Origin: Escherichia coli
GTDB lineage: Bacteria; Pseudomonadota; Gammaproteobacteria; Enterobacterales; Enterobacteriaceae
DNA length: 64,000 bases
NCBI RefSeq assembly: GCF_003334815.1
Contig: NZ_QOWO01000001.1
Reading direction: 5' to 3' (one strand)
How positions within the stretch are numbered: the first letter of the stretch is position 1; every line of letters starts with the position of its first letter. This document shows positions 29,896 through 39,050 of the stretch, piece by piece. Below the pieces are notes generated by a model. That model saw only the letters and a program-made list of their open reading frames with translations, did no database searches and was not told the origin of the DNA. A program made the position numbers and the translations under genes.

Positions 29896-30834
29896 CTAAC
29901 CAACTTCTATTAATTGCCTTCGTCTACACCCATTATAAGATGAATACTCTTTGGCTAATTCCACCAAAACCGATGCTGCTTTTTTAATACGATAATTTTT
30001 CGACCATACCGCGGCATATTGTGCCACAGGTAATGTTTCTTCAACCGGAATAGTAATAAATTGATTAGAACCAAAAGGTGACGTCATATCACAAGGAATT
30101 ACAGTTAAGAAATCAGCATTGAGAACAAGATTATAAATTGTCACGACTGAGTCGGTTTTAACGATGTTTTCAATACTGATGCCATTTCTTTGTAACGTAG
30201 TAAGCAGTTCGCTGTAGTACCCCATATTAGTTTGTGGCAACACCCACTGTTCGTTCTTCAACGACTCCAGCGTGGTGGTGCCGGTGCATGTTCGGGACTT
30301 ACTGGCTACCAGCACAAACTCGGACTCGAACAGCGGCTCAACATGTAAATCCTGAAGCTTCATTTCTGCACTTAACGTACCAATCGCAAAATCCAGTCGA
30401 CCGTCGCGGATTGCCGGTAAGAACGAAGACAGTTGCGCTTCATACATAGAAACCTGCGCTTTCGGGAACACCTCTTTGAACTTGTTGATCATCCCTGACA
30501 TAAAAGTAAAACCAATCAATGAAGGAAAACCAAATGAGACTTCCACCACCGCCTCAGAAGACATACCGCTTATCTCATTAACCATATTTTTCATTTCACG
30601 GGTAATGGATTCGGAACGGGAGAGTAACAATTGACCGGCAGGTGTTAATGTTACACCGGTATTTTTCCGCACCACTAATTCCACACCAAAATAATCTTCA
30701 ATATCGTTAATGATTTTACTGACGGCCGGTTGAGTTAACCCTAATTCTTTTGCAGCCGAGCCGATAGAACCACTTCTAATGACTTCCTGAAAGACTACCA
30801 GGTGCTGCGTTTTCGGAAGAAGAATAGTGCTCAT
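29896..30834 (-). CDS. tdcA: LysR-family activator TdcA (312 aa)
   Basis: N-terminal helix-turn-helix; first gene of the tdc operon. Confidence 0.9.
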   Translation of the reverse strand: MSTILLPKTQHLVVFQEVIRSGSIGSAAKELGLTQPAVSKIINDIEDYFGVELVVRKNTGVTLTPAGQLLLSRSESITREMKNMVNEISGMSSEAVVEVSFGFPSLIGFTFMSGMINKFKEVFPKAQVSMYEAQLSSFLPAIRDGRLDFAIGTLSAEMKLQDLHVEPLFESEFVLVASKSRTCTGTTTLESLKNEQWVLPQTNMGYYSELLTTLQRNGISIENIVKTDSVVTIYNLVLNADFLTVIPCDMTSPFGSNQFITIPVEETLPVAQYAAVWSKNYRIKKAASVLVELAKEYSSYNGCRRRQLIEVG

Positions 30835-30897
30835 AACGACCTACGTTAATTACCTCATTGACGGCATGAAGTGTATCAAAATGAAATGAACAGGATA

Positions 30898-30913
30898 TGT
30901 GCGACCACTCACA
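30898..30913. promoter_or_regulatory. Putative CRP binding site in the tdc promoter region
   Basis: TGTGCgaccacTCACA matches the TGTGA-N6-TCACA consensus; lies about 70 bp upstream of the tdcA start. Confidence 0.45.
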
Positions 30914-31148
30914 AATTAACTTTCAATACTTTCCAGAGTATCGTTATTACAATTAAATACCTTTAAATATCAACAAGTTAAAGTATAAAAATCAGCATAA
31001 ACCCTGATTTTTGTCAAAAAAAATGACGGGGATAACCATATTTTATGGCGATAACATCATTCGTTATGTGGTTAATACAAAAAAGGGGCTGAGACCATAT
31101 TTCAAGCAATTACCGGATAATTACCAGGCAAAATTTGAGTTAAATTTA

Positions 31149-31367
31149 ATGAGCAAGTTCTCAAATTTTATTATAAATAAACCATTTTCAGTGATAAATA
31201 ATGCGGCATGTCACATTTTTTCACGCTATTTGTTGGAGAACAAACATTTATTTTATCAATATTTTAAAATTTCGAATACATGTATTGATCATCTCGAACA
31301 ATTGATTAACGTCAACTTTTTCTCTTCTGACAGGACGTCATTTTGTGAATGCAATCGTTTTCCATAA
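31149..31367 (+). CDS. tdcR: Small regulatory protein TdcR (72 aa)
   Basis: Internal ATG at 31149 gives the 72-aa product recalled for TdcR; low-GC sequence; divergent from tdcA. Confidence 0.6.
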   Translation: MSKFSNFIINKPFSVINNAACHIFSRYLLENKHLFYQYFKISNTCIDHLEQLINVNFFSSDRTSFCECNRFP

Positions 31368-31622
31368 ATTCTTCTCCCCTCATAGGCGACGAATAGCATT
31401 TTGTGTTGAGGATCACAAAACGAATAATTGCTGATCGCCGCGATAAGGTCAGACAAAGACAACAAGGGAAATTTTCACAGAGCTTTTGATCGGCGTAGGC
31501 CACAGAATGTTGCTTCGTTTACTGTAACGCCGGGTAAATGAGCGTTTTTTGATAGTGCGAAAGAACCCTGCGAGGAAAATAAGCATCTATTATTGTTTGT
31601 CATGATGACAAGGCAGGCATCA

Positions 31623-32162
31623 ATGAAAGGCTTCCCAATTGCGCATATTTTTCACCCTTCAATCCCGCCAATGCACGCAGTGGTTAACAATCACAATAGA
31701 AATATTGATTATTGGACGGTAAAAAGAAAGTTTGCAGAAATTGTCTCCACCAATGACGTTAATAAAATTTACAGTATAAGTAATGAACTGCGGAGAGTAT
31801 TATCTGCAATAACTGCATTGAATTTCTATCATGGCGATGTTCCTTCTGTCATGATCCGAATCCAACCGGAAAATATGAGTCCATTCATTATAGATATTTC
31901 TACAGGAGAACATGATGATTATATCATACAAACATTAGATGTAGGCACTTTTGCACCTTTTGGTGAACAATGTACTTGCTCAGCCGTCAATAAAAAAGAG
32001 CTGGAATGTATTAAGGAGACGATTTCTAAGTATTGTGCAAAATTCACCCGAAAAGAAGCCATCTTAACCCCCCTTGTGCACTTTAATAAAACCAGCATTA
32101 CTTCAGATTGTTGGCAAATTCTCTTTTTTTCACCCGATCATTTTAATAATGATTTTTATTGA
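31623..32162 (+). CDS. yhaB: Uncharacterised protein YhaB (179 aa)
   Basis: ATG at 31623; low-GC ORF; position matches K-12 yhaB. Confidence 0.6.
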   Translation: MKGFPIAHIFHPSIPPMHAVVNNHNRNIDYWTVKRKFAEIVSTNDVNKIYSISNELRRVLSAITALNFYHGDVPSVMIRIQPENMSPFIIDISTGEHDDYIIQTLDVGTFAPFGEQCTCSAVNKKELECIKETISKYCAKFTRKEAILTPLVHFNKTSITSDCWQILFFSPDHFNNDFY

Positions 32163-32183
32163 TTATTTATAAAGGATAAAATA

Positions 32184-33371
32184 ATGTTCCCTGTTTCATC
32201 AATTGGTAATGATATTAGTAGTGATTTAGTCCGTCGAAAAATGAATGACCTTCCTGAAAGCCCAACAGGAAATAACCTCGAAGCACTAGCACCAGGTATA
32301 GAAAAACTAAAACAGACCTCTATTGAAATGGTCACTTTACTTAACACGTTACAACCTGGTGGAAAATGCATTATCACTGGTGATTTTCAAAAAGAATTAG
32401 CGTACTTACAAAATGTAATTCTTTATAATGTCTCGTCTCTTCGTCTGGATTTTTTAGGTTATAACGCCCAAATTATTCAACGATCGGACAATACTTGTGA
32501 ACTTACCATTAATGAACCGTTAAAAAACCAGGAAATATCCACAGGTAATATCAATATTAATTGCCCATTAAAAGATATTTACAATGAAATCAGGAGGTTA
32601 AACGTAATTTTTAGTTGTGGGACTGGAGATATCGTTGATCTATCCTCTCTGGACTTACGTAATGTCGATTTAGATTATTATGATTTCACAGATAAACATA
32701 TGGCTAATACTATTTTAAATCCTTTTAAATTGAATTCAACAAATTTTACTAATGCCAACATGTTTCAGGTTAATTTTGTTAGTTCAACACAAAACGCCAC
32801 AATCTCCTGGGATTATTTACTAAAAATAACGCCTGTTTTAATAAGCATTAGCGATATGTATTCTGAAGAAAAAATCAAGTTTGTCGAAAGTTGTTTAAAT
32901 GAGCCTGGAGACATTACCGAAGAACAATTAAAAATTATGAGATTTGCAATTATAAAATCTATACCAAGGGCAACTCTTACAGATAAATTAGAAAATGAAT
33001 TAACAAAAGAAATATATAAAAGCTCATCGAAAATCATCAATTGCTTGAACAGAATTAAATTACCAGAGATGAAAGAATTCTCATCAGAAAAAATATATGA
33101 TTACATCGATATAATCATTGAAGATTATGAAAATATCAAAGAAAATGCTTATCTGGTCGTCCCCCAAATTAATTATACTATGGATTTAAACATAGAAGAC
33201 TCTAGCTCAGAAGAGTTACTTTCAGATAATACCCTCGAGAAAGACGAAAATTCTCCGGACAATGGCTTTGAGGTCGGGGAATATAACACATATGAAGCAT
33301 ATAACTCAGAGAAGCAATATTTTACCAGAGAGGACTATACGTATGATTACGACCTTTTAAATGCAATATAG
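32184..33371 (+). CDS. yhaC: Uncharacterised protein YhaC (395 aa)
   Basis: ATG at 32184 with an AAAGGA Shine-Dalgarno; strongly AT-rich; central pentapeptide-like repeats and an acidic Y/D/E-rich C-terminus. Confidence 0.65.
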   Translation: MFPVSSIGNDISSDLVRRKMNDLPESPTGNNLEALAPGIEKLKQTSIEMVTLLNTLQPGGKCIITGDFQKELAYLQNVILYNVSSLRLDFLGYNAQIIQRSDNTCELTINEPLKNQEISTGNININCPLKDIYNEIRRLNVIFSCGTGDIVDLSSLDLRNVDLDYYDFTDKHMANTILNPFKLNSTNFTNANMFQVNFVSSTQNATISWDYLLKITPVLISISDMYSEEKIKFVESCLNEPGDITEEQLKIMRFAIIKSIPRATLTDKLENELTKEIYKSSSKIINCLNRIKLPEMKEFSSEKIYDYIDIIIEDYENIKENAYLVVPQINYTMDLNIEDSSSEELLSDNTLEKDENSPDNGFEVGEYNTYEAYNSEKQYFTREDYTYDYDLLNAI

Positions 33372-33490
33372 ACTTAATAACTTCTTACAAAGTCTATTAT
33401 TAATACCGTAGATATTTATTCATCTTACCCTGTGCACCAAAAGCAAAAACTCACTGACGCGGGTTTGAAACTGATGGCAACCGCAAAAAT

Positions 33491-33589
33491 GCCTGATGCG
33501 CTACGCTTATCAGGCCTACGCCATCTCTGCAATATATTGAATTTGCGTGCTTTTGTAGGCAGGATAAGGCGTTCACGCCGCATCCGGCA
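33491..33589. repeat. REP cluster (two inverted REP elements)
   Basis: gcctgatgcgctacgcttatcaggcctac and its inverted partner gtaggcaggataaggcgttcacgccgcatccggca. Confidence 0.7.
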
Positions 33590-33616
33590 TGAATAAAGCG
33601 CACTCAACAATCTGAA

Positions 33617-33984
33617 ACCCGCCGGAACGGTTTATTACGTACATCAGGTAAAACTGACCGATAAGCCGCTTTCTTTTGGGTATAGTGTCGTGGACAGTCA
33701 TTCATCTTTCTGCCCCTCCAAAAGTAAAAACCCGCCGAAGCGGGTTTTTACGTAAAACAGGTGAAACTGACCGATAAGCCGCTTTCTTTTGGGTATAGTG
33801 TCGTGGACAGTCATTCATCTTTCTGCCCCTCCAAAAGCAAAAACCCGCCGAAGCGGGTTTTTACGTAAACCAGGTGAAACTGACCGATAAGCCGCTTTCT
33901 TTTGGGTATAGCGTCGTGGACAGTCATTCATCTTTCTGCCCCTCCAAAAGCAAAAACCCGCCGAAGCGGGTTTTTACGTAAATC
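33617..33984 (-). repeat. 113-bp tandem repeats downstream of rnpB (three full copies plus a degenerate partial), each carrying a terminator hairpin
   Basis: Repeat units begin at 33645, 33758 and 33871 (exact 113-bp period); each contains aaaaacccgccgaagcgggttttt and a copy of the last ~40 nt of rnpB. Confidence 0.85.
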
Positions 33985-34361
<377 letters not shown>

Positions 34362-37341: not shown

Positions 37342-38676
37342 TTATTTCTGCAATTCCATACGTTTAATGTCGCCAACTACGAAGAGGTAGCAGACCATCG
37401 CCATCAGCGCTGAACATCCCACGAAAACCAGTGCTGCATTGAAGGAGTGCAGTTCACTTACCAGGTAGCCAATCACCAGTGGAGTGACAATGGAGGCAAC
37501 ATTGCCAAAGACGTTAAAGACGCCGCCGCAGAGGCCAACAATCTCTTTCGGCGCGGTGTCAGAAATCACCGGCCAGCCCAGCGCACCAAATCCTTTGCCA
37601 AAGAAAGCCAGCGCCATCAGCATGACCACCAGCGTGGTGTTGTTGGTGTAGTTACATAAGATGATGGTGGAAGCCAGCAACATTCCCAGCACAATCGGTA
37701 GCTTACGTGCCAGGGTCAGGGATAAACCGCGTTTGATCAGATAATCCGAGAAGACACCTCCCAGCACGCCGCCCGCAAAACCACACAGTGCTGGAATCGA
37801 GGCGACCAGACCCACTTTCAGAATCGACATGCCTTTTTCCTGCACCAGATAAATCGGGAACCAGGTGAGGAAGAACCAGGTGATGGTGTTGATAAAATAT
37901 TGTCCGAAAAATACGCCCAGCATCATGCGGTTAGAGAGCAATTGCTTGATGTAATGCAGTTTGGGTCCGCTTGCTGCCGCACTGCCCGGCTTTTTGTGGT
38001 CCATATCGACCACCGCGCCATTTTCAGAGATAAACTTCAGCTCTTCCGCAGACATACGTGGGTGATCTGTCGGGTTATGAATCAACTTGATCCACAGCGC
38101 CGTCAGCACAAAACCAATCACCCCCATAACGGTAAAGACGTGCTCCCAGCCCCAGGCGAAAGTCAGCCAGCCAAGCAGCGGCGAAAAGAGCGCCAGCGAG
38201 AAATATTGCGCCGAGTTAAAGATGGCGGAGGCAGTACCACGTTCTTTCGTCGGGAACCAGGCGGCGACAATTCGGGCGTTCGCCGGGAATGATGGCGCTT
38301 CCGAGAAGCCGAGCATAAAGCGCATAAAGAACATGGAGATCCCTGCCCAGGCCAGCGGGAACATATCAACAAAGCCTTGCAGGAAGGTGAATAGCGACCA
38401 GAAAAAGAGGCTGTAGGTGTAAACTTTTTTCGAGCCAAACTTATCAAGCAGCCAGCCGCCGGGGATTTGCATCAGCAAGTAGGCCCAGCCAAAAGCGGAG
38501 AAGATGTAACCCATCGAAACCGCACTTAACTGCAACTCTTTTGCCACTTCGGTACCAGCAATAGACAGCGTTGCACGATCGGCGTAGTTAACGGCGGTAA
38601 CAATAAAAATAATCAGTAATATTAAATAGCGGGTATGCACGCCTTTCTTTTTTTCGTCAACGGTGTCCAGAATCAT
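37342..38676 (-). CDS. garP: Galactarate/glucarate MFS transporter GarP (444 aa)
   Basis: 12-TM MFS protein; first gene of the garPLRK operon. Confidence 0.9.
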   Translation of the reverse strand: MILDTVDEKKKGVHTRYLILLIIFIVTAVNYADRATLSIAGTEVAKELQLSAVSMGYIFSAFGWAYLLMQIPGGWLLDKFGSKKVYTYSLFFWSLFTFLQGFVDMFPLAWAGISMFFMRFMLGFSEAPSFPANARIVAAWFPTKERGTASAIFNSAQYFSLALFSPLLGWLTFAWGWEHVFTVMGVIGFVLTALWIKLIHNPTDHPRMSAEELKFISENGAVVDMDHKKPGSAAASGPKLHYIKQLLSNRMMLGVFFGQYFINTITWFFLTWFPIYLVQEKGMSILKVGLVASIPALCGFAGGVLGGVFSDYLIKRGLSLTLARKLPIVLGMLLASTIILCNYTNNTTLVVMLMALAFFGKGFGALGWPVISDTAPKEIVGLCGGVFNVFGNVASIVTPLVIGYLVSELHSFNAALVFVGCSALMAMVCYLFVVGDIKRMELQK

Positions 38677-39050
38677 TTTATTTACCTCGGGTACTTATGC
38701 TGATTTTTATTATTATGGGGAAGGTGTTATTTATGAGTTTCATTTATGCCGTAACGACAATGAACTCGGGAATTAGTATAAGCAGCGCGAGAATAATAAT
38801 CATTGTGCAAATGCTAATTTAATTAATACTATTTAAATATTATTTTGAGCATATGCACATAAGGTTGCGCGCTAAAGCACAGATTTGCGCTTTACCTTAC
38901 CGGGCGGCACTGCAATCCCTGAAATGATTGACATTGATCACATTTCTGCGTTTAAACTCCTGACATTCTTATTTCACCCAATGAAGTCATTTATTTTTAA
39001 ATGAGACCAGGTCCTCATTTTAATAACCCCTGGCTGGAGAATATTGCACA

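Follow-up and report, generated by a model that had tools for sequence, protein, structure and literature searches.

The low-G+C tdcR-yhaB-yhaC segment of Escherichia coli: an older tdcR region beside a two-gene insertion that encodes a protein with a pentapeptide-repeat-like stretch

The low-G+C segment of the Escherichia coli chromosome that carries tdcR, yhaB and yhaC has two histories. Because tdcR is present in sister lineages without yhaBC, the islet is composite, and it is yhaB and yhaC that behave like laterally acquired DNA. We propose that the segment combines an old AT-rich tdcA-tdcR region, including tdcR, with a foreign piece of about 1.9 kb (~31469-33406), which would have entered between tdcR and the terminator repeats of rnpB before E. 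coli diversified. Taken as a whole, this explanation has in our judgment an even chance of being correct. Positions refer to the analyzed stretch of 64,000 nucleotides (64 kb), called the window hereafter, and the features discussed are collected in Table 1.

Table 1. Features of the tdcR-yhaB-yhaC segment and its flanks, with positions in the window
Feature	Position	Strand	Remarks
tdcA-tdcR divergent control region, AT-rich	30835-31148	n/a	G+C 31.8%
tdcR	31149-31367	+	72 aa; annotated transcriptional activator
Published FNR ChIP site AACAATTGATTAACGTCAACTTTT	31297-31320		inside tdcR, upstream of yhaB; position confirmed in the window
Published CRP site TTTGTGTTGAGGATCACAAAA	31400-31420		downstream of tdcR; conserved in E. 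ruysiae and E4930
E. coli-specific insertion, ~1.9 kb	31469-33406	+	yhaB leader, yhaB, yhaC and 35 bp beyond; junctions approximate
yhaB	31623-32162	+	179 aa soluble orphan protein
yhaC	32184-33371	+	395 aa acidic soluble orphan protein
Pentapeptide-repeat segment of YhaC, residues 151-205	32634-32798	+	
Acidic Tyr/Asn-rich variable tail of YhaC, residues 321-384	33144-33335	+	
Conserved C-terminal motif of YhaC, residues 385-395	33336-33368	+	
Incomplete, degenerate copy of the repeat unit located downstream of rnpB	33407-33466		directly 3' of the insertion; repeat families D2/D3; aligns with the E. ruysiae unit
Pair of REP elements	33491-33519 and 33555-33589		from sequence
Array of three 113-bp repeats with terminator-like hairpins	33603-34025		downstream of rnpB
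rnpB (RNase P RNA), conserved right flank	33985-34361	-	Rfam RF00010, 318.6 bits

The open reading frames of tdcR, yhaB and yhaC lie exactly where the original prediction had placed them. The right border is likewise the one claimed there, formed by a REP cluster (a pair within 33491-33589) and the rnpB repeat array. Between yhaB and yhaC there is a gap of 21 nt, with the Shine-Dalgarno sequence AAGGA located 8 nt upstream of yhaC, and the two genes have been handled as one young operon (PMC12218254). No integrase, tRNA, flanking direct repeats or IS element was seen at the borders of the insertion, and no genes for type III secretion, chaperones, mobility or defense adjoin yhaBC. In some K-12-like strains (e.g., O16:H48 PG20180061 and TG1), an extra stretch of 113 bp corresponds to one repeat unit.

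Base composition sets the segment apart from its tdc and gar neighbors, as had been claimed. The G+C content of positions 31149-33371 is 33.5%, against a mean of 50.0% (SD 4.3) when the entire 64 kb is scanned in 2.2-kb windows, and the lowest of these (0.329) is located at tdcR-yhaB-yhaC. The GC/GC3 values of the three genes are 0.288/0.315 (tdcR), 0.356/0.311 (yhaB) and 0.318/0.280 (yhaC, whose GC3 is the minimum), compared with 0.464/0.439 for tdcB, 0.498/0.619 for tdcC and 0.538/0.534 for garK in the flanks. Codon usage deviates in the same direction. With the remaining long ORFs of the window as the reference set, codon adaptation is 0.530 for yhaC (the lowest value) and 0.587 for yhaB versus 0.699 +/- 0.044 for the other long ORFs, which makes both genes clear outliers from their neighbors; the share of rare codons peaks in yhaC at 12.4%.

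Comparison with sister lineages divides the segment. The tdcA-tdcR region and tdcR itself are also found in E. ruysiae and Escherichia sp. E4930, while yhaB-yhaC is missing from both, leaving a clean empty site; the gene pair is therefore an E. coli-specific insertion. Homology to these two genomes stops at about 31431-31468 and restarts within the rnpB repeat unit. Thus, the claim of a horizontally acquired islet stands for yhaB-yhaC and fails for tdcR. The tdcA-tdcR control region is ancestral in Escherichia and lies outside the insertion. TdcR matches NCBIfam NF008507 with 174 bits and has homologues in Escherichia only; the dN/dS of its gene is 0.98 against E. ruysiae and 0.90 against E4930, compared with 0.01-0.05 for neighboring genes.

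The foreign origin of the islet and its binding by H-NS have already been published. Promoter islands at tdcA/tdcR and within yhaC are listed in Table 1 of PMC3661553 as foreign by several prediction methods; in this compilation of ChIP results, the entry on H-NS binding for the island in yhaC reads 'according to all studies', the tdcA/tdcR island is also listed as H-NS-bound, and such 'promoter islands' are said to be transcriptionally suppressed. In its low G+C content, lineage specificity and H-NS binding, yhaBC resembles the H-NS-silenced xenogeneic islets of E. coli K-12 (PMC3661553). It differs from them in its small size (about 1.9 kb, two genes), in the lack of mobility signatures at its borders and in the unusual depth of the allele classes that it holds at one fixed place in the chromosome.

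The yhaBC operon would normally be silenced. A simple scan found no sigma-70-like promoter on the plus strand of the yhaB leader, and the three plus-strand promoter-like sites nearest to the yhaB start all fell inside yhaB. Two published regulatory sites are located upstream, an FNR ChIP site, AACAATTGATTAACGTCAACTTTT (PMC1802558), and a CRP site, TTTGTGTTGAGGATCACAAAA (PMC12871828). Since the CRP site is conserved in lineages without yhaBC, it predates the insertion; the FNR site falls in a patch of tdcR whose encoded residues are the same in E. ruysiae and in E4930. Both sites, older than the insertion, may serve tdc or tdcR and not yhaBC. If yhaBC is expressed, its transcription would start from this older CRP/FNR-controlled region, under the anaerobic, catabolite-derepressed, gut-like conditions that apply to tdc.

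The gene pair is restricted to E. coli/Shigella, as a survey of presence and absence of the kind that the original prediction had suggested made clear. Among 5426 complete genomes, 4302 carry largely present yhaBC (at least 80% of length matched), and about 1085 (~20%), including Nissle 1917, retain only remnants. Nissle-type remnants consist of the 5' end of yhaB, 63 nt of yhaC and the 3' end of yhaC; because such remnants are kept, the absence is a secondary deletion and the insertion preceded the radiation of E. coli. A 2.8-kb query gave a median of 28 matching places per genome, an excess likely due to REP copies, whereas yhaB-yhaC alone has a median of one place per genome, with 5388 of 5389 places chromosomal. 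Three of the four 'plasmid' matches are records of 4.8-4.9 Mb, i.e., mislabeled chromosomes, and no copies were found on phages. Among 100,044 species-representative genomes, there was no full-length relative outside E. coli/Shigella; the sole two matches were E. coli contigs mis-binned into MAGs. No full-length relatives of YhaB or YhaC outside E. coli/Shigella were found among 5.8 billion proteins by word search or 1.84 billion by exhaustive HMMER search, and YhaB and the parts of YhaC outside the repeats matched nothing among these 1.8-5.8 billion proteins. The search for a donor thus yielded no copy in phages or other species, and the plasmid-collection matches are chiefly mislabeled chromosomes.

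The operon is dispensable; it is often expendable and may be decaying. One explanation is that yhaBC has no function today. It would be what is left of an old insertion, silenced and in slow decay, and its diversity would reflect relaxed constraint and a high rate of mutation or recombination in AT-rich, H-NS-bound DNA. The deletion in ~20% of genomes, IS elements inside yhaBC in some strains, the yhaB frameshifts common in many sequences, the existence of a yhaB-yhaC fusion, H-NS binding and the suppressed transcription described for promoter islands (PMC3661553) are in line with this explanation. Moreover, the open-access papers that mention yhaB or yhaC contain no defined phenotype, and their only experimental finding is the recovery of a yhaB knockout in a cell-density enrichment screen. 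We nevertheless consider a relic improbable in view of the pattern of substitutions. The dN/dS values are 0.19-0.25 for yhaB and 0.18-0.32 for yhaC, indicating purifying selection on both, and this level (0.2-0.3) is held over a dS of 0.52-0.63 between allele classes at yhaBC, compared with 0.07-0.13 in the flanks; neutral decay would give a dN/dS near 1, as in the adjoining tdcR. The most deeply diverged YhaC allele, with 66% identity, sits at the same locus, and a recombinant allele also exists. The comparison covered six sequenced alleles, the deepest included, and each of them has both ORFs intact. Because purifying selection acts on both frames across such deep allelic divergence, yhaB and yhaC encode real proteins. 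Two features of YhaC described below also speak against a relic, namely repeat conservation that tracks a structural period, with an invariant core and a variable surface, and a conserved C-terminal motif.

YhaC matches NCBIfam NF007262 ('YhaC family') with 890 bits and has a pI of 4.4. The stretch of pentapeptide-repeat-like sequence that had been proposed for it, from strings falling in residues 157-201, was recovered as in-phase pentads beyond chance. Residues 151-205 read VDLSS LDLRN VDLDY YDFTD KHMAN TILNP FKLNS TNFTN ANMFQ VNFVS STQNA, i.e., 10-11 in-phase pentads. An L, F or M occupies each fifth residue (10 of 10, residues 153-198), a regularity matched by one in 20,000 shuffles of the protein; in the first 10 pentads, position i-1 is D/N in 7 and position i-2 is V/T/A in 6. 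Between alleles, the center residue is invariant in 10 of the 11 pentads and position i+2 in 2 of 11, a periodic core conservation that is compatible with a beta-helix that is right-handed and quadrilateral.

Family models detect this stretch below their thresholds (Pfam Pentapeptide_4, E = 0.14; Pentapeptide, E = 6.4), the NCBIfam model penta_Alr5209 is not significant (E = 0.12), and a PDB profile search returned only cyanobacterial and designed repeat proteins at E 0.05-2. The profile of YhaC itself, searched against a protein library, retrieved about 35 long proteins at library-wide E-values of 2.6e-10 to 1e-3, nearly all through residues ~140-215 and with 2-11 stretches per protein. In the two matches that were checked, PF00805 domains are numerous (best E 4.4e-13 and 1.2e-08), so that the YhaC profile retrieves Pfam-verified pentapeptide-repeat proteins (PRPs), and it reaches them only through residues 140-210. 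YhaC thus appears to join the PRP superfamily (PF00805/PF13599; right-handed quadrilateral beta-helix), sharing the L/F/M center residues in 10 pentads. It differs from known members in that its segment is short and degenerate, so that Pfam HMMs are non-significant, and in that its N-terminal, helical and acidic-tail regions have no counterpart among them.

The repeats make up ~14% of YhaC and the residues outside them ~85%. The protein would comprise an N-terminal alpha/beta region (residues 1-145), the repeats, a helical region (206-323) and an acidic tail, variable and rich in Tyr, with the conserved DYDLLN[A/E]I at its end. An acidic C-terminal tail rich in Tyr, Asp and Glu had been noted before, and residues 321-395 indeed hold 18 D/E, 3 K/R and 9 Y, with a pI of 4.05. 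The invariant fraction of residues 297-384 is 0.38, the lowest among six regions compared, and the dN/dS of the tail is 0.48. Residues 321-384 are probably disordered, and the low-confidence model gives no secondary structure there. By comparison, the end motif YTY(D/N)YDLLN(A/E)I (residues 385-395) has an invariant fraction of 0.82 and is kept in the 66% allele. AlphaFold2 modeled YhaC with a mean pLDDT of 34.9, falling to 21-29 over residues 150-210, which were modeled without secondary structure. Neither YhaC nor YhaB contains a transmembrane segment or a signal peptide.

Acidic proteins with pentapeptide repeats include Qnr, MfpA, AlbG and McbG, and YhaC could be a DNA mimic of the Qnr/MfpA/McbG type that binds DNA gyrase or another DNA-processing enzyme and protects or regulates it. 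MfpA and Qnr are similar in length to AlbG. Pentapeptide repeats, strong acidity (most of all in the tail) and the fact that the only biochemically defined bacterial PRPs act in this way (PMC8145042) are points in its favor. In these proteins, however, nearly the whole chain is repeat sequence, wound into at least 8 coils (eight complete ones in AlbG), and the dimer of MfpA is a rod as large as B-DNA (PMC8145042). In YhaC, by contrast, there are about 55 repeat residues of 395, enough for ~2.5-3 coils, and the ~85% of the protein that is non-repeat is absent from such proteins. Additionally, there is no significant PDB-profile match to Qnr, MfpA or AlbG and no LexA box near yhaBC, and a DNA mimic seems to us very unlikely.

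YhaB is a protein of 20.6 kDa with a pI of 6.4, for which a precomputed assignment to Pfam PF27690/UCP004546 exists. Searches of Pfam-A, PDB, PADLOC and PHROG gave no match of note, no PDB chain was found for its profile even at E <= 10, and the AlphaFold2 model (pLDDT 36) is unusable. A Bud32/RIO-type kinase was rejected, because TIGR03724 scored 16.5 bits (E 0.0044) against a cut-off of 125, and the residue before the invariant G71-D72 is H, Q or K among alleles. MkoA, suggested by PADLOC with an E of 0.011 over 60 residues, is not credible. The earlier statement that neither YhaB nor YhaC has an assigned function remains true after these family and profile searches.

For the mode of action, we tentatively favor YhaC as a protein-binding adaptor or decoy without an enzymatic signature, a possibility that we rate well short of an even chance. 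According to a review, domains of pentapeptide repeats can mimic DNA, bind a partner directly or serve as a scaffold for binding (PMC8145042). In YhaC, the short beta-helix would present a rigid face with outward residues that differ among alleles, the acidic tail and end motif would attach to a basic protein, perhaps one that binds nucleic acids, and YhaB, made from the same mRNA, would be a partner or modulator of YhaC. yhaC has been reported to rank with the top genes for positive selection (PMC9110714), and frequent loss, deep allelic divergence and this published site-wise positive selection together fit a variable target (phage, mobile element or host factor) and not a housekeeping role.

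A host factor would be the target if YhaC were a translocated, host-directed effector, for example a leftover substrate of ETT2, a degenerate type III system. The conserved DYDLLN[A/E]I and the acidic stretch before it would then mimic the acidic-cluster dileucine (DxxLL) signal used for sorting in eukaryotes, with YhaB as a possible chaperone. Strains without yhaBC may also lack ETT2. YhaC resembles EspX (EHEC), PipB/PipB2 and SopA/NleL in having a non-repeat N-terminus, short repeats and a C-terminal region, and also in its AT-rich gene and restricted lineage. PipB2 carries a functional terminal motif, and the end motif of YhaC is conserved inside a variable tail. EspX1 of O157 Sakai likewise has a long N-terminal region followed by short degenerate repeats. 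Other points in favor are the polar, Ser-rich N-terminus of YhaC without a signal peptide, the AT-rich, lineage-specific and H-NS-bound character that yhaC shares with many effector genes, and its positive selection (PMC9110714).

Homology searches, however, speak against an effector, which we regard as highly doubtful. EspX1 aligned with YhaC at an hhalign probability of 0.3% over 32 columns, all in the repeats, and EspG, of the EspG/VirA family, at 0.1% (BLASTP E 2.6). EspG, the best Foldseek match, was non-significant (E 0.085, TM 0.15-0.17, 82 columns) and came from a low-confidence model (mean pLDDT 35), while structures of SopA/NleL were not among the results of the PDB profile search. 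Unlike EspX/PipB2-type effectors, YhaC has no type III context, with no secretion or chaperone genes adjoining yhaBC. Class I type III chaperones are smaller and more acidic than YhaB. Furthermore, matches to short motifs are common by chance, and yhaC is intact in K-12, which to our knowledge has no working type III system.

If the target is instead a phage or mobile element, yhaBC could be an unrecognized defense pair, with YhaC as sensor or decoy and YhaB as effector, or the reverse. The operon is a compact, lineage-restricted, often-lost and polymorphic two-gene cassette with reported positive selection, and such a pattern of loss, polymorphism and selection is typical of conflict genes. 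One distant match to the YhaC repeats (P0140) is fused to a TIR domain, and PRP domains occur in immune-type architectures. A defense pair is nonetheless unlikely: apart from the MkoA match of YhaB (E = 0.011), PADLOC returned nothing for the two proteins, no PHROG match had an E below 0.046, and neither YhaB nor YhaC has a recognizable domain of the nuclease, NTPase, TIR, SIR2, protease or membrane-disrupting kind. The locus lies outside defense islands with no integrase beside it, was never found on phages and is confined to a single species, unlike most defense systems, which spread horizontally.

Beyond the adaptor or decoy favored above, a bolder proposal is that yhaBC is a conflict module against a non-self target, acting through a fast-evolving repeat surface and the acidic tail with DYDLLN[A/E]I; we hold this to be unlikely. 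YhaC would either bind and neutralize a protein of a phage or mobile element or, provided that it is exported, engage a host sorting adaptor as a eukaryote-like acidic dileucine signal, and balancing selection would maintain the two deeply diverged allele classes in E. coli. Should this prove true, yhaBC would represent a new functional class built on the pentapeptide-repeat scaffold in the best-studied bacterium.

The window carries a K-12-like E. coli chromosome, and the 2.8 kb around the tdcR-yhaB-yhaC islet matches K-12-derived and related strains at 99.7-100% identity; for these, RefSeq gives the order tdcC-tdcB-tdcA (-), tdcR, yhaB, yhaC (+), rnpB, garK, garR (-). ORF calls agreed with the coordinates that the original prediction had given for the three genes (see the table), and the low G+C content it had reported was also found: the segment 31149-33371 contains 33.5% G+C, against a mean of 50.0% (SD 4.3%) over all 2.2-kb windows of the 64 kb, and the minimum lies here. 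GC3 is 0.28 in yhaC and 0.31 in yhaB, compared with 0.44-0.62 in tdcB, tdcC, garK and garR. The proposed check of codon adaptation pointed the same way, with 0.530 for yhaC and 0.587 for yhaB against 0.699 +/- 0.044 for the 34 other long ORFs of the window used as reference, and the share of rare codons among long ORFs is highest in yhaC. Two other dips in G+C, both far smaller, occur near 52751-54000 (0.37-0.38 over 1 kb) and near 38600-39000 (0.345, in the spacer between two divergent ORFs). The 113-bp array downstream of rnpB has three copies in the window and fewer in Nissle 1917, E. ruysiae and Escherichia sp. E4930; an extra 113 bp, the length of one more repeat unit, is carried by some K-12-like strains, O16:H48 PG20180061 and TG1 among them.

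Features of the islet, its surroundings and the compared genome loci (L handles), with dN/dS estimated by the Nei-Gojobori method
Feature	Coordinates	Strand	Basis or position	dN/dS
tdcR	31149-31367	+	ORF call; 72 aa	
yhaB	31623-32162	+	ORF call	0.19-0.25
yhaC	32184-33371	+	ORF call	0.18-0.32; tail 0.48
Degenerate partial copy of rnpB repeat unit	33407-33466		directly after yhaC; two REP elements between it and 113-bp array	
Two REP elements	33491-33519 and 33555-33589		between yhaC and rnpB	
Three 113-bp repeats	33603-34025		between yhaC and rnpB	
rnpB	33985-34361	-	Rfam	
tdcA				0.00
garK				0.03
tdcR in compared loci	L013:5001-5219, L016:5061-5279, L006:4965-5201			

TdcR homologues are confined to Escherichia and include those of E. 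ruysiae and E4930, two sister lineages in which the locus reads tdcA-tdcR-rnpB-garK and no gene is called between tdcR and garK. In alignments of these loci to the window, homology spans tdcR and a CRP site, ends at about 31431-31468 and restarts in the rnpB repeat unit, and no trace of yhaB or yhaC was found in the aligned loci of either lineage. This gap makes about 1.9 kb (31469-33406) an insertion with respect to the two sister lineages, and its junctions carry neither an integrase, a tRNA or an IS nor flanking direct repeats. The original prediction had read the composition and context of the whole islet as typical of acquired DNA. This stands for yhaB and yhaC, for which E. ruysiae and E4930 provide an empty site, but not for tdcR; since both of these lineages have tdcR, a single acquired unit of tdcR-yhaB-yhaC was rejected. 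The islet is thus a composite. E. coli Nissle 1917 has also lost the genes, and what remains is ~100 nt at the yhaB start, 63 nt of internal yhaC (32453-32515) and the yhaC 3' end. These are the traces of a secondary deletion, and the insertion is therefore older than E. coli diversification.

The gene left outside the insertion evolves differently from its neighbours. Compared with E. ruysiae and E4930, tdcR shows 22-24 nonsynonymous differences versus 5-6 synonymous ones, giving dN/dS of 0.98 and 0.90, respectively, against 0.01-0.05 in neighbouring genes, while inside E. coli its dS is 0 and its dN 0.02. The ORF is open in all sequences examined, and six codons longer in the rare allele described below. 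On these figures, tdcR evolves as if its reading frame were unconstrained, and its patches of conservation match the published position of the FNR site, which raises doubt that the 72-aa TdcR peptide, rather than the DNA, is the functional entity.

Published data place several regulators at this locus. H-NS-bound "promoter islands" with predicted foreign genes include the yhaC interior and the tdcA/tdcR spacer (PMC3661553), a ChIP site for FNR at 31297-31320, within tdcR, has been attributed to yhaB (PMC1802558), and so has a CRP site at 31400-31420 (PMC12871828). The positions of the FNR and CRP sites were checked in the window sequence. Neither E. ruysiae nor E4930 has yhaBC, and the CRP site is completely conserved in the former and almost so in the latter; it therefore predates the insertion and was not brought by it. 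The insertion landed downstream of a CRP/FNR-bound region that already existed, and the CRP site may act on tdcR or tdc, or on an unannotated transcript towards the rnpB repeats. A simple scan of the region detected no intrinsic terminator, and no + strand promoter in the yhaB leader was convincing; there is no LexA box near the yhaBC operon. The gap between yhaB and yhaC is 21 nt, with a Shine-Dalgarno sequence AAGGA before yhaC, and a phylostratigraphic study took the pair to be a single young operon (PMC12218254).

At least 80% of yhaB-yhaC was found in 4302 of 5426 complete genomes, and about 1085 contain only remnants; the pair has a median of one place per genome, chromosomal in every case except one. 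The proposed presence/absence check limited yhaBC to E. coli/Shigella. When one genome per species was scanned across 100,044 species, yhaC matched only two contigs, L007 (CAUHML010000178.1) and L008 (JAIJJM010000798.1), from MAGs labelled Bacteroides sp. and Collinsella sp.; these are almost certainly mis-binned E. coli contigs, since YhaC identity is 99% and 87%. The E. coli representative genome was itself unmatched and is suspected to be a yhaBC-less strain. YhaC was not found in the phage collection. Four matches came from the plasmid collection, three of them 4.8-4.9-Mb records that are mislabelled chromosomes, the fourth a 354-kb record.

Signs of decay are also visible. Several abundant YhaB variants have frameshifted C-termini, a YhaB-YhaC fusion was found, and IS1, IS5-like and IS621 insertions lie in or beside yhaB/yhaC in some strains. 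The corresponding nucleotide match records (H1, H12, H15 and H60) fall at window position 31623-33600; IS1 is inside yhaC, the IS5-like element is ISKpn26, and IS621 (IS110 family) adjoins the REP elements. Many database YhaC entries are ~225-aa fragments flagged as partial, which might be assembly breaks at an IS insertion. One 252-aa protein (P0072) has a tyrosine-phosphatase-like N-terminus (PF13350) followed by the final 87 YhaC residues; its only source is one very short ENA contig (917 bp), which points to a probable chimeric assembly rather than a real domain fusion.

Where the genes are intact, their dN/dS values indicate constraint that is weaker than in the metabolic neighbours and clearly non-neutral, and this constraint persists at very large synonymous distances. 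These estimates show that yhaB and yhaC are real, selected genes and no annotation noise. In a published genome-wide scan, yhaC ranked within the 14 genes with the most significant positive selection (PMC9110714). The common alleles are diverse (86-95% protein identity), and a rare class encodes YhaC and YhaB only 66% and 77% identical to the window proteins; at >=95% identity it occurs in 19 of the 5426 complete genomes, at precisely the locus that the genes have in the window. This rare haplotype (L003-L006, e.g., L006:4965-7170) has 72-89% nucleotide identity to the window over ~31200-33600, in a block that covers tdcR, yhaB and yhaC and breaks off abruptly at rnpB (compared over 30800-33990), with flanks mostly 96-100% identical. 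Between the classes dS reaches 0.52 in yhaB and 0.63 in yhaC, against 0.07 in tdcA and 0.13 in garK, and is larger than the dS between E. coli and E. ruysiae in five of the six flanking genes compared (0.23-0.37; garK, 0.60). No donor of the rare haplotype was found, and since its tdcR keeps the outgroup-shared residues L4, S12, R21 and D45, it looks like an old lineage and no recent import. Recombination between the two classes is seen in at least one allele (P0030). Deep allele classes at one locus together with loss in a fifth of genomes make this population pattern unusual. It would fit an unrecognised defence module, but yhaBC yielded no model match and no effector domain, and we regard this explanation as unlikely.

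YhaC is a protein of 45.3 kDa (pI 4.4) whose sole family match is NF007262, "YhaC family". When 1.84 billion representative proteins were searched exhaustively by HMMER, a profile built from 11 alleles gave full-length matches only to YhaC itself. About 35 long proteins matched at E values from 2.6e-10 to 1e-3, nearly all via residues ~140-215 and with 2-11 stretches each; those inspected are classical pentapeptide-repeat proteins, two of them confirmed with many PF00805 domains. In the reverse direction, Pfam and PDB pentapeptide models match YhaC 151-198 only at E 0.05-0.14. The pentapeptide-like strings quoted in the original prediction are present in YhaC, where residues 151-205 read VDLSS LDLRN VDLDY YDFTD KHMAN TILNP FKLNS TNFTN ANMFQ VNFVS STQNA. 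This segment qualifies under a working definition from the literature, which asks for a run of eight or more contiguous repeats (PMC8145042). The pentad centre is L, F or M ten times in succession, matched by 1 of 20,000 shuffles, and it is invariant across alleles in 10 of 11 pentads, compared with 4 of 11 for position i+1 and 2 of 11 for i+2. Such a pattern is expected with a buried core and exposed turns and supports a folded beta-helix. That yhaBC might be a functionless relic is contradicted by both the dN/dS values and this periodic conservation, and seems improbable to us. The repeat segment forms only ~2.5-3 coils, far too few for a Qnr-type DNA mimic, a role that we consider very unlikely for YhaC. 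The pentapeptide assignment, the first for YhaC, is partial: it covers a small part of the protein and is statistically supported though sub-threshold. The acidic, Tyr-rich tail was likewise recovered, with 18 acidic and 3 basic residues and 9 Tyr in residues 321-395. It is the most variable part of YhaC, and the last 11 residues, YTY(D/N)YDLLN(A/E)I, are kept even in the 66% allele.

Structure prediction was uninformative for both proteins, because the available homologues are all near-identical: AlphaFold2 models reached a mean pLDDT of 34.9 for YhaC (11-sequence alignment) and 36.1 for YhaB (6 sequences), and are unusable. The beta-helix and other domains are therefore predictions from sequence. 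A PDB profile search with YhaC returned weak matches only, with pentapeptide proteins at E 0.05 or above; methylenetetrahydrofolate dehydrogenase (E 0.0085) and LinA (E 0.044) were treated as noise. No PDB structure reached E <= 0.001 when the YhaC model was searched with Foldseek. Homology to EspG (Foldseek top chains at E 0.085; hhalign 0.1% and BLASTP E 2.6 against EspG from the Sakai LEE) and to EspX1 (probability 0.3% against the YhaC profile) was rejected. YhaC has a layout resembling EspX and PipB2, and its C-terminus resembles a eukaryotic DxxLL signal; the EspX1 and EspG comparisons are negative, however, and a secretion context is absent, and we see little chance that YhaC is a translocated effector. 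The most fitting description of YhaC is that of an uncharacterised protein with pentapeptide repeats in an otherwise orphan architecture.

YhaB (20.6 kDa, pI 6.4) had no match in Pfam-A as searched here, PDB, PADLOC or PHROGs, and precomputed annotation places it in PF27690/UCP004546, its own family. A Bud32 kinase match (E 0.0044; 16.5 bits versus a cut-off of 125) was rejected, and the PDB profile search did not reproduce it. Across Pfam-A, NCBIfam, PADLOC and PHROGs, nothing significant except self-families was obtained for either protein, and neither has a transmembrane segment or signal peptide.

Taken together, yhaBC is an E. coli-specific, dispensable, single-copy insertion encoding two proteins under purifying selection. 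We infer that the operon is H-NS-silenced under laboratory conditions and, when derepressed, would be transcribed from the CRP/FNR-controlled region. YhaC has no catalytic signature, and pentapeptide-repeat domains are known to act by mimicry, direct binding or scaffolding (PMC8145042); by analogy, YhaC may bind another macromolecule. Contacts would be made by the variable outward-facing side of the predicted beta-helix and by the acidic tail with its terminal motif, with YhaB as the partner. The population pattern suggests that the target itself is variable. We consider the description as a whole (insertion, silencing and YhaC binding with YhaB as partner) to stand at about an even chance, and its adaptor or decoy step to be a tentative and rather doubtful proposal.

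The low-G+C, foreign and H-NS-bound character of the locus and positive selection on yhaC were already published, and the genes had been annotated and named. New here are the limits and dating of the insertion with the exclusion of tdcR, purifying selection on both ORFs, deep allele classes at a fixed site, the pentapeptide-repeat assignment for part of YhaC and its conserved C-terminal motif. We found no functional study of yhaB, yhaC, b3120 or b3121 in the literature searched, where several matches were unrelated uses of these strings. As a small xenogeneic islet, yhaBC is of a kind already known and would not surprise a specialist, and its practical significance is modest unless the conflict or effector reading is true. 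Both genes belong to the K-12 genes without function, homologues or usable structure prediction, of which they are clean, testable members, and the present results make concrete experiments on them possible.
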